In this document: positions 18,253 through 44,513 of the stretch, one piece after another | How positions within the stretch are numbered: the stretch's first letter is position 1 | Layout: every line of letters begins with the position of its first letter | NCBI GenBank assembly: GCA_947653875.1 | Contig: CANTIK010000010.1 | Location: 12,366 to 76,365, forward strand | Direction of reading: 5' to 3' | Length of the DNA stretch: 64,000 nt | Source of the DNA: an uncultured Clostridia bacterium | GTDB lineage: Bacteria > Bacillota > Clostridia > Oscillospirales > Oscillospiraceae | Made by a program: the position numbers and the translations under genes | Notes under the pieces: model-generated | Database searches by the model: none | The model's input: only the letters and a program-made list of their open reading frames with translations | Told to the model about the DNA's origin: nothing

Positions 18253-18304
18253 TGGTTCTCTGCGCCGCTGCGCGGCGCATGGCAAGCTGTTTCGTTTCGG
18301 AGGC

Positions 18305-18800
18305 CCGGGGCTTACGCAGCCCCGGACTCCGCGCCTACTTTTGCCCCGCGGCAAAAGTAGGCAAAAACGCGCCAGAACCATATGGTTCTGGACTCCTTTT
18401 ACGGGGGAGCAAAGGGCTGTGCGGCGGGGTTTCTGGTTAGGCGAAGCCTCCGAATTTGCAGTTCTTCTTCTGCCACTCTGGTACTTGTAGAACTTCGCCT
18501 GTCGGCCTTTCAAAGAGAGACTGCCTGCAAGGGGCGCTTGTTCTAACGAACCAGCCAGCAACTTGCACCCCGGCGAGCCTGCCCCGCTAAAGCGGTAGGG
18601 GCCATCGTCAACCACGCTGAAATAGAAACTGAAGTTGCACGAAGCGGACGGCAGTATGGTAGACCAAACCAGACTGTGCCTCGGGCGCAAACCAATAACC
18701 CCCGTAATGAAGGAGGATTCTTAAGGAACGTAGTTCCTTAAGCGACCTTTTGCTTCTTTTCGTTCGCACGAAAAGAAGGTCCCCGCCCCTGGTGGGGCGG
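18305..18800. repeat. Structured noncoding repeat, copy 1 (inverted relative to copy 2)
   Basis: Alignable to the reverse complement of 43896-44430. GC hairpins at 18305-18325 and 18783-18800. Paired AT-rich hairpins and conserved islands inside. Confidence 0.7.
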
Positions 18801-18849
18801 AAAAAGCCTCCGCCGCCGTGAAACGGCGGCATAAGAAAGGAGCAATTCA

Positions 18850-26678: not shown

Positions 26679-26973
26679 TCTCCTTTTGTAAAGGGAGACA
26701 TAGTTTTTTTATTTTAACAGAAATGTATACAGATTTCAATCCCTTGATTGTGGATATCCTTTCAGGCCTCCCGGTCCGAAGGGCTTTTTTATCCAATTCA
26801 TGACATCAGTACGCCTTCTCCACGCCGCCGGAGCAACCCCCACCGATTTGGTGAACTCCTTGTTATCATCGGGAAACCATATATAGCAATCATCAGAATT
26901 CCTGGCAAAAGCTCGGGGATACAAAGGGCGCATGGCCGCGTTGTCGTCCTTGGCGGGCGTCAGCCCGCCTGCG

Positions 26974-27041
26974 TCCTCCGCCTTGCCCTGCGCCCTTTGT
27001 CCTCCCCTCCTTTTTTGTCATGAATTCTGAAGCTTGCTATA
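26974..27041 (+). repeat. 68 bp repeat, copy A (inverted partner at 40003-40069)
   Basis: About 64 of 68 positions identical to the reverse complement of 40003-40069, with one 1 nt indel. Confidence 0.8.
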
Positions 27042-40000: not shown

Positions 40001-40029
40001 TCTATAGCAAGCTTCAGAATTCATGACAA
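40001..40029 (-). promoter_or_regulatory. Sigma-A-like promoter inside repeat copy C, driving the endonuclease gene
   Basis: Minus strand TTGTCA, 17 nt spacer, TATAGA, about 30 nt upstream of the RBS/ATG at 39968. Confidence 0.5.
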
Positions 40030-40069
40030 AAAGGAGAGGAGGACAAAGCGCGCAGGGCAAGGCGGAGGA
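40003..40069 (-). repeat. 67 bp repeat, copy C (inverted partner of 26974-27041)
   Basis: Reverse complement matches copy A, including the promoter hexamers and the GAATTC/AAGCTT-containing spacer. Confidence 0.8.
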
Positions 40070-40115
40070 TGTGGGCGGCAGCGAAGCCCTGCGCCATTTG
40101 GCGTCTGACGGCAGT

Positions 40116-43590: not shown

Positions 43591-43880
43591 TTGAAATATG
43601 AGATCGTGAAACTCCGGGAGTGTCCGGAGAGGAAGGACGAGGCCGCGGTATGGTTCCATGAGAAGTGGGGCTATCCTCTGGAGGCCTACCGGGAGAGTAT
43701 GGAAGAGTGTCTGGCGGGCGGGGGCCCGGTTCCCCAGTGGTACATGGCTGTGGCGGAGGGACGGATCATACGTCGTTTTATGAGCGGTATGGATGGGAGT
43801 TTTTCTGCATGGCCTTGGGGGATGGGGAGGACAGGCCCAGCAGGATGTACCGGCGGCCCTGCGGGCCGCTCCTGCTCTGA
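43591..43880 (+). pseudogene. GNAT acetyltransferase with internal deletion/frameshift
   Basis: The N-terminal 60 aa are in frame 1. The C-terminal TDHTSFYERYGWEF...SRMY is in another frame. The acetyl-CoA-binding core is missing. Junction near 43759-43772. Confidence 0.55.
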
Positions 43881-43895
43881 TCTTTCGTTTAGATT

Positions 43896-44430
43896 CGTCC
43901 CTGCCGGGACGGGGGCGTACTTTTCGTGTGAACGAAAAGTACCAAAAGGTCACTTAGGAAACTGCGTTTCCTAAGAACCTTCCCTCATTACGGGGGTTAT
44001 TGGTTACGCTACGACCTTTGGACTGGCTGGGCTATCTCCGGTGCTATGGGCCGATGCCGGTGCATACTTCTGCGCACAGTCCTAACGATGGTGCTGGTTG
44101 CCTCGCGGCACTCGGCACGGGGGTCTGGTGGGGAGGGTGCGAATTTGAAGGATGTACCGTTAGACCGTGTGCCCCTTGCAGGGAGTACCCCTTTGAAAGA
44201 GCGGCAGCCGGAGTTCTACAAGTACCAGAGCGGCAGAAGGAGAACCGGAAATTCGGAGGCTTCGCCTCCCCAAAAACCCCGCCGCACAGTCCTTTGGTCC
44301 TCGCCGAGGATTTGCCGAACAGGCAAAGCCGAGAAGGGATTCTTAAACCGTCAGGTTTAAGTGACTTTTTGGTTACTTTTTGTTCACACAAAAAGTAACC
44401 GCAGGGCGTCCGGGGCCGCGCAGGCCCCGG
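43896..44430. repeat. Structured noncoding repeat, copy 2
   Basis: GC hairpins at 43896-43911 and 44410-44430. Terminal inverted modules at 43917-43980 and 44337-44400. Homologous to copy 1 in reverse orientation. Confidence 0.7.
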
Positions 44431-44513
44431 GGTATCGAAAAGAAACAGGCGGAGGCGGCCCGCAGGGCCGCAGATAAGACCACCGCGATACGCACATGAA
44501 GGAGGGCCCCCCT

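Follow-up and report, generated by a model that had tools for sequence, protein, structure and literature searches.

A probable MITE-like repeat with long multi-hairpin arms in the genome of a gut Oscillospiraceae bacterium

The segment studied here, located in a 64,000-nt stretch of DNA from an uncultured Clostridia bacterium (the window), is probably a copy of a MITE-type interspersed repeat of non-coding DNA. The family to which this copy (copy 2) belongs is new and MITE-like and can be assigned to no named family, and a second member (copy 1) was found in the same window. Copy 2 is ~0.6 kb long and consists of two arms of ~135 nt, each made of four hairpins, which are inverted around a core of ~350 nt.

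Structure of copy 2 and pairing of the arm hairpins

The hairpins were named H1 to H4 from the outside to the inside of each arm, and the arm modules are mirrored (H1-H2-H3-H4 ... H4-H3-H2-H1). The nhmmer module map places copy 2 at C10:56217-56837, corresponding to 43852-44472 of the window, and an outer inverted repeat with 91% complementarity was found at 43848-43869/44455-44476. Both hairpins H3 and H4 of the right module are perfect or near-perfect, and a conserved block of the core module CR, CCCCCGTAATGAGGGAAGG, adjoins H4. The coordinates of all features are listed in Table 1.

The left and right ends of copy 2 had been described in the original prediction as inverted copies of one module, and this was confirmed by a complementarity of 87-94% over seeded stretches (87% for 43918-43947 with 44368-44397, and 94% for 43941-43956 with 44358-44373). 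The GC hairpins said to cap each module on the outside are present as H2 on both sides. The predicted terminal inverted repeats of about 90 bp do exist as inverted arms, while their length had to be corrected to ~135 nt, with an extra outer GC hairpin (H1) on each side. Since the H1 loops at the two ends are reverse complements of each other (TGC/GCA), the H1 pair is an inverted repeat and not a target duplication. Copy 1, for which the same arrangement had been proposed, indeed has an identical layout in the opposite orientation and is 79% identical to copy 2 overall.

Table 1 Coordinates of copy 2, copy 1 and related features (window positions, or contig of the same genome where a C number is given)
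Feature	Position	Strand	Sequence or remarks
Copy 2, whole element	~43848-44476	-	reverse to the family consensus (class I arm - core CL - core CR - class II arm)
Copy 2, left outer GC hairpin H1	43853-43869		GCGGCCC TGC GGGCCGC
Copy 2, left GC hairpin H2, class II form	43896-43911		GTCCC TGCC GGGAC
Copy 2, left A+T-rich hairpin H3	43917-43942		GTACTTTTCGT GTGA ACGAAAAGTAC, then CAAAAGGTCA; perfect hairpin 43917-43927/43932-43942, 100% complementary
Copy 2, left hairpin H4	43953-43975		CTTAGGAAAC TGC GTTTCCTAAG, then AACC; perfect hairpin 43953-43962/43966-43975
Copy 2, core module CR	43979-44155 (limits approximate)	-	nhmmer CR-, profile positions 2-177
Copy 2, core module CL	44157-44335 (limits approximate)	-	nhmmer CL-, positions 2-180
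Copy 2, right hairpin H4	44342-44361		CTTAAACC GTCA GGTTTAAG
Copy 2, right A+T-rich hairpin H3	44371-44400		GGTTACTTTTTGT TCAC ACAAAAAGTAACC; perfect hairpin 44371-44383/44388-44400, 100% complementary
Copy 2, right GC hairpin H2, class I form	44410-44430		CCGGGGCC GCGCA GGCCCCGG
Copy 2, right outer GC hairpin H1	44455-44471		GCGGCCC GCA GGGCCGC
Copy 1, whole element	~18261-18830	+	consensus orientation; between oadB (stop 18252) and oadA (start 18850)
Copy 1, class I arm, H1-H4	18261-18398	+	covariance model match, 151 bits
Copy 1, class II arm, H4-H1	18713-18830	-	covariance model match, 44 bits; module map
Eight-copy subfamily, loci given	C25:28769-28968, C12:42849-43101, C31:29830-30338, C2:81766-81955, C61:10828-11026, C63:10374-10602, C8:72588-72765		
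Nested GC-rich unit, example arms	C38:5479-5605, C66:11754-11880, C68:8014-8139, C42:14776-14895, C6:63513-63640, C75:9145-9271		
Tyrosine recombinase contigs	C11, C14, C59, C65, C67, C83, C46, C28, C5		

To describe the pairing of the arms, a covariance model was built on the class I arm, and its 141 matches in the family loci examined were aligned. In this alignment, which is thus fitted to the structure, 97.3% of the pair cells hold standard pairs, compared with 72% after shuffling of partners and 35-52% when partners were slid by 1-3 columns. Changes on both sides were seen in 30 of the 36 arm pairs, and compensated cells numbered 1011 against 316 in the shuffles. By helix in the same alignment, all seven pairs of H1 had changed on both sides, 7 of 8 pairs were compensated in H2, H3 was paired in 98.6%, and H4 was paired in 99.4% with all eight pairs compensated. 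The same picture was obtained from an independent MAFFT alignment of H3 and H4, which contained 1369 Watson-Crick cells, 7 G-U, 14 A-C and 4 other cells.

The arms are maintained as palindromic hairpins, and no excess of wobble pairs was found in them on either strand. In a DNA palindrome both strands fold alike. The near-pure Watson-Crick pairing, with no strand-specific wobble, therefore points to a constraint on the palindrome at the DNA level and not to a strand-specific RNA.

The repeat family, its distribution and its empty sites

When copy 1 was compared by BLAST with its own genome (3.42 Mb in 106 contigs, a 98% complete draft whose assembly breaks at some copies), 84 matches were obtained. 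nhmmer profiles were then used for four modules, namely the left and right versions of arm T and the cores CL and CR, and these gave 259 module hits at 89 loci, which total 37.6 kb or 1.1% of the genome. The family is far beyond chance occurrence.

Complete elements of the form T>CL-CR<T are present at about 39 loci, with a length of 0.6-0.67 kb and with cores that abut within 0-3 nt. Another 8-10 loci hold long elements of 1.16-1.2 kb, which carry an extra ~0.58 kb precisely where the two cores meet (T>CR(-)[...]CR(+)<T or T>CL[...]CR<T), and there are about 16 half elements, consisting of an arm and one core, as well as about 20 solo arms. Two classes of arm were distinguished: class I usually adjoins CL and class II usually adjoins CR, and the two arms of one element usually belong to different classes and are only about 70% alike. 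At the divergence of 10-35% seen between most copies, the family may by now have become mostly inactive. Average identity of the cores is 65%, and copies have exchanged modules with one another. We also considered CL as an inverted relative of CR, which was ruled out (z = 0.4 against the CR reverse complement), as was a coding reading of the core, because the longest ORFs differ in frame and strand between copies.

Element ends read (T)TCT-H1 ... H1-AGA(A), and the flanks beyond them are locus-specific. In them one finds either a stop codon at a distance of 0-10 nt or, in complement, a ribosome-binding site with its start codon. Most members of the family occupy the very short gap that separates a stop codon from the ribosome-binding site that follows.

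The family also includes an eight-copy subfamily, whose arms are class II-like and surround another conserved core, ~110 nt long (…GGTGCGCCGGTCTGGTGGTTCTATCCACGGGTTCTTACGG…); no Rfam match was found for it. A GC-rich double-hairpin unit of ~55 nt (…TGGGCCGCCGCGGCGGGCTTAGCGCTAAAAGCGCCGCTTGCGGCGCTTCAC…) is nested in H2 of at least eight arms of both classes and resembles another repeat, of smaller size, with the H2 palindrome as its target; the copies on contigs C20 and C2 contain two small GC hairpins related to it.

The original prediction proposed a search for empty sites at the oadB-oadA and GNAT-cobB junctions, and both proved to be empty in relatives. In the more distant relatives (L036, L039, L041, L042 and L044), oadB and oadA are separated by only 15-20 nt, comprising the stop, the ribosome-binding site and ATG. 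The junction is variously occupied across the close relatives L031-L035, with a truncated arm in L031, similar arms around another core in L033, and other hairpin-rich inserts in L034, L035 and L037. GNAT-cobB is uninterrupted in G017 and G009, where the GNAT stop overlaps the cobB start, while in the genome of the window the last GNAT codons are replaced by element sequence. The GNAT gene is decayed as originally described, lacking ~170 nt internally compared with its G017 orthologue. In its remnant at 43591-43880 the ORF runs to a TGA inside the arm, and no Pfam domain was detected in the ORFs that remain there.

The two flanks of each of twelve other elements were also joined and used to query eight congeners, and alignment of the regions obtained showed three more loci to be uninterrupted among G009, G012, G013, G019, G021 and G024. 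Altogether, five of the six junctions examined are empty in at least one congener, and at the sixth a 130-nt mini palindrome stands instead of a 1.2-kb element. No clean empty site was seen in G014, the closest relative, since nearly all insertions are either present there too or coincide with breaks between its contigs. An exact-protein look-up of cobB in metagenome assemblies returned only filled sites. The presence of different inserts at one junction across species could reflect repeated targeting rather than turnover after a single insertion. At one further junction, the own genome carries an element (C5:53089-53692), and G014 has 1.5 kb of A+T-rich sequence that contains an ORF of 406 aa and lacks arms (G014:C13:31534-33017, L154).

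Of 25 genomes of the genus, 20 carry the repeat, at widely varying loads. It was detected in 2 of the 134 genera of the family Oscillospiraceae, while among 16 genomes from other families of the order there was a single weak match in one. As far as these genome sequences go, the repeat family is confined to one genus of gut Oscillospiraceae. No match to the repeat was found in phage and plasmid collections.

Two loci share a 385-nt stretch, comprising an arm, CR and nested hairpins, which is 99.7% identical between C20:41498-41880 and C2:39887-40270 (L187 and L188). The two elements become identical 8 nt outside H1, at TCTTTCTT; beyond this stretch they differ, and their flanks are unrelated. 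Such identity between unrelated flanks argues for recent copying or conversion, and the sequences point to a recent gene conversion or partial copy.

Search for a transposase and the gene-bearing relatives

Among 26 complete elements, no target-site duplication of fixed length or offset was found, and the mean best repeat was 3.5 nt compared with 2.6 nt in shuffled pairings. Since the relatives with empty sites are only 75-85% identical, a duplication of 2-3 nt may have escaped these alignments, and the element ends given are approximate.

A transposase gene flanked by the same terminal modules, as had been anticipated, was not found in the genome: between arms there are only cassettes encoding HTH and DUF6809-like proteins and one unannotated 221-aa membrane-like ORF. 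No match to Y1/RAYT (PF01797) was obtained in the 98%-complete genome, while control genomes were positive, and no multi-copy transposase emerged from clustering of all ORFs of at least 120 aa. This clustering yielded only tyrosine recombinases, two IS21-like copies and serine recombinases, none of them adjacent to elements. The sole sizeable multi-copy enzyme family comprises ten XerC-like tyrosine recombinases, none of which lies within 8 kb of an element. These ten paralogues, of 270-320 aa, have Phage_integrase and SAM-like N domains, and several are located at contig ends. Thus, of the proposal that the segment is a MITE-like non-autonomous element, the multi-copy, dispersed nature and the empty sites stood, while neither the transposase encoded elsewhere nor a regular target-site duplication was found.

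In the long elements, two divergent small genes occupy the 0.58-kb insert, in the layout arm-core-[DUF6809-like <- -> HTH]-core-arm. One encodes an XRE-type HTH protein of about 76 aa (PF01381, E = 3e-14), and the other a helical DUF6809-like protein of 76-90 aa (PF20648, 19-49 bits). Both genes run outward and stop 0-25 nt before a core, with the arm beyond it, and 17 of the 41 cores outside complete cargo-less elements have a cassette gene reading into them. Cassette-bearing units are also present in G009, G017, G020 and G021. At the site of the long element C2:2908-4065, the cassette is found in G017 and G009 as well, G017 having CL where the own genome has CR, and G021 has only a 130-nt mini palindrome of the form H1-spacer-H2-spacer'-H1'.

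No catalytic domain was detected in either cassette protein. The DUF6809-like protein was modelled as three helices (pLDDT 86), and a search for relatives gave no structural match for the model, no PDB relative by sequence and no PHROG or PADLOC family. Literature searches on DUF6809 and on MITEs in Oscillospiraceae or Clostridia returned nothing relevant. Across the genus, the DUF6809 count correlates with the repeat load (Spearman rho 0.63, p = 0.0008; 0.53 per Mb). Genomes beyond this genus have DUF6809 too, and in its canonical form it lies in an ICE-like region that lacks arms. This region of the own genome, C9:21500-28000, carries the best-scoring canonical DUF6809 gene, with no HTH partner, and its neighbours are an amidoligase-like gene, a DUF4314-like gene, a cytosine methyltransferase and a broken IS5-like transposase.

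In the MITE-like reading that we favour, the arms would be the conserved cis-acting part, and the ~350-nt core (CL + CR), which drifts, would be filler. Because the cassette sits exactly at the CL/CR junction, the 0.6-kb form would be a cassette-less derivative, which probably arose by loss of the central 0.58-kb cassette from 1.2-kb relatives with the same arms and cores. New insertions would be catalysed in trans. Copies already inserted would change mainly in two ways: by recombination or gene conversion between arms, with cores and cassettes being swapped, and by palindrome-mediated deletion, from which half elements, solo arms and mini palindromes would result. Since the hairpins are palindromes, their inverted copies contain direct repeats of the stem arms, so that slippage could lead to mini palindromes such as the one in G021.

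Alternative readings and comparison with known repeats

The predicted inward-facing terminator-like hairpins may affect neighbouring genes. The elements might be REP/BIME-like and retained by the host, with hairpins that act as terminator-like or mRNA-stabilising stacks at gene ends and are kept for this RNA or transcription function and not for mobility. Consistent with this, 6 and 8 terminator-like sites were predicted against 1.4 expected, nearly all of them pointing inward from both ends; elements lie within 0-30 nt of stop codons and ribosome-binding sites, and copy 1 is retained in the oad operon both here and in G014, with 90% identity. However, the T-runs are separated from H1 by 5-8 nt, no sigma-70-type promoter is predicted to restart oadA, and the hairpins lack a G-U excess. 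By a crude GC3-based gene call, the elements occur in 41 tandem, 16 convergent and also 12 divergent contexts, roughly as for any intergenic DNA, and this distribution gives no evidence that a terminator effect is the reason for the existence of the repeats. Most congeners also do well with empty sites. We consider host retention unlikely, and in the MITE-like reading such effects would be a by-product.

Less likely again is a mobile cassette system that works without any transposase. The 1.2-kb form would then be autonomous, with its HTH and DUF6809-like proteins recruiting host recombination or replication to the arms, or the arms would serve as portable homology for the exchange of cores and cassettes among about 90 sites.

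It is also improbable, and somewhat more so, that the arms are recombinase sites and the elements invertible or exchangeable cassettes, inverton- or integron-like, with HTH and DUF6809 as a cargo or control module. Such exchange would fit the finding that similar arms at one junction enclose cores or cassettes that differ from species to species, as well as the substitution of CL for CR downstream of the same gene in G017 and the ten small tyrosine recombinase paralogues. Against this, no recombinase adjoins any element, five orthologous copies are colinear between the own genome and G014 with no inversion seen, and the arms of one element, usually of two classes, are poorly matched to each other.

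The segment is no RNA gene. Pairing of the two ends as RNA, a long-range clamp, had been raised as the alternative to a transposon, and we consider it very improbable that the arms clamp a functional core in this way within a large non-coding RNA. The whole element folds strongly as a single strand with its arms paired (-289 and -265 kcal/mol, z = -9.1 and -6.1 against shuffles), which makes the clamp thermodynamically possible, but any inverted repeat yields such a fold. No sign of selection was seen, be it in co-adaptation of the arms, orientation bias, strand-specific wobble or core structure. Arm identity is 0.67 within one element and 0.72 between elements, so the arms within an element are no more alike than those of different ones and give no sign of a selected clamp. 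Orientation relative to tandem neighbour genes is random (13:8, p = 0.38). The RNAalifold consensus fold of the cores (68 CR and 43 CL copies, both strands) showed essentially no structure (-2 to -6 kcal/mol). The window gave no match at gathering thresholds in Rfam 15 (including OLE, ROOL, GOLLD and HEARO), and permissive Rfam searches gave only noise at E up to 10 for copy 1 and nothing at E up to 0.1 for ten other family loci. The copy number of about 90, in which half elements and solo arms are common, also speaks against an RNA gene.

Judged by behaviour, the closest counterparts of the family are bacterial MITEs and structured interspersed repeats (Correia/NEMIS, RUP, BOX and bcr1), and the long forms resemble mobile insertion cassettes (MICs). 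With regard to the features of MITEs, the elements are small, non-coding and multi-copy, have terminal inverted repeats and correspond to empty sites in relatives, while a fixed target-site duplication and a cognate IS with the same ends and a transposase were not found.

Correia/NEMIS elements of Neisseria and RUP of Streptococcus pneumoniae are small, non-coding, multi-copy and intergenic, carry terminal inverted repeats, vary by presence or absence between relatives, and are often co-transcribed with neighbouring genes; Correia elements are not known to have a cognate transposase. The present family shares the first six of these properties, but its arms of ~135 nt with four separately covarying hairpins contrast with a repeat of 20-30 bp, and its element length of 0.6 kb with 0.1-0.15 kb. 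Moreover, no TA or other target duplication was seen here, and the longer relatives carry regulators instead of a transposase. BOX of the pneumococcus and bcr1 of the Bacillus cereus group are similar in being modular (boxA/B/C compared with arm/CL/CR), in their stable predicted hairpins, which show compensatory changes, and in having dozens to about 100 copies in one lineage, whereas they have no sequence relationship to the present family, which in addition has cassette-bearing versions. In addition, a defined duplication, TTTAT, accompanies bcr1, and long inverted arms are missing from BOX.

REP/BIME and REPIN-RAYT systems likewise consist of extragenic palindromic hairpins in mosaic clusters and inverted pairs at gene ends and in operon interiors. 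However, the RAYT that defines them (PF01797) is absent here, the present units far exceed theirs in length, and the arms enclose two cores of 180 nt that are unrelated to each other. Elements derived from IS200/IS605 differ in that their left and right end hairpins are in direct orientation and the arm modules of the present family mirrored, and no Y1 TnpA gene was found in the genome. The likeness to MICs such as MIC231 of Bacillus cereus concerns 1.2-kb units flanked by inverted repeats, passenger genes without a transposase, and MITE-like versions that lack the cargo but keep the same ends. MICs are moved by a known IS (IS231) whose ends they have in common, whereas a related IS was not found in this genome.

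The family makes up ~1% of the genome in a common gut Oscillospiraceae genus, breaks assemblies at contig ends, lies inside operons such as oadB-oadA and took the place of the final codons of a GNAT gene that was broken already. Annotators could mistake the repeat for an RNA gene or for terminators. It is unusual among mobile DNA for its very long multi-hairpin arms with compensatory maintenance and for the lack of a detected transposase or target duplication. Since the relatives that do bear genes encode only a small regulator pair, one may ask what moves such elements in Clostridia. The arm profile would allow these repeats to be masked and used as strain markers. The window also contains a 51-nt inverted repeat unrelated to the family (26965-27015 and 40028-40078), which is 90% complementary and brackets ~13 kb.
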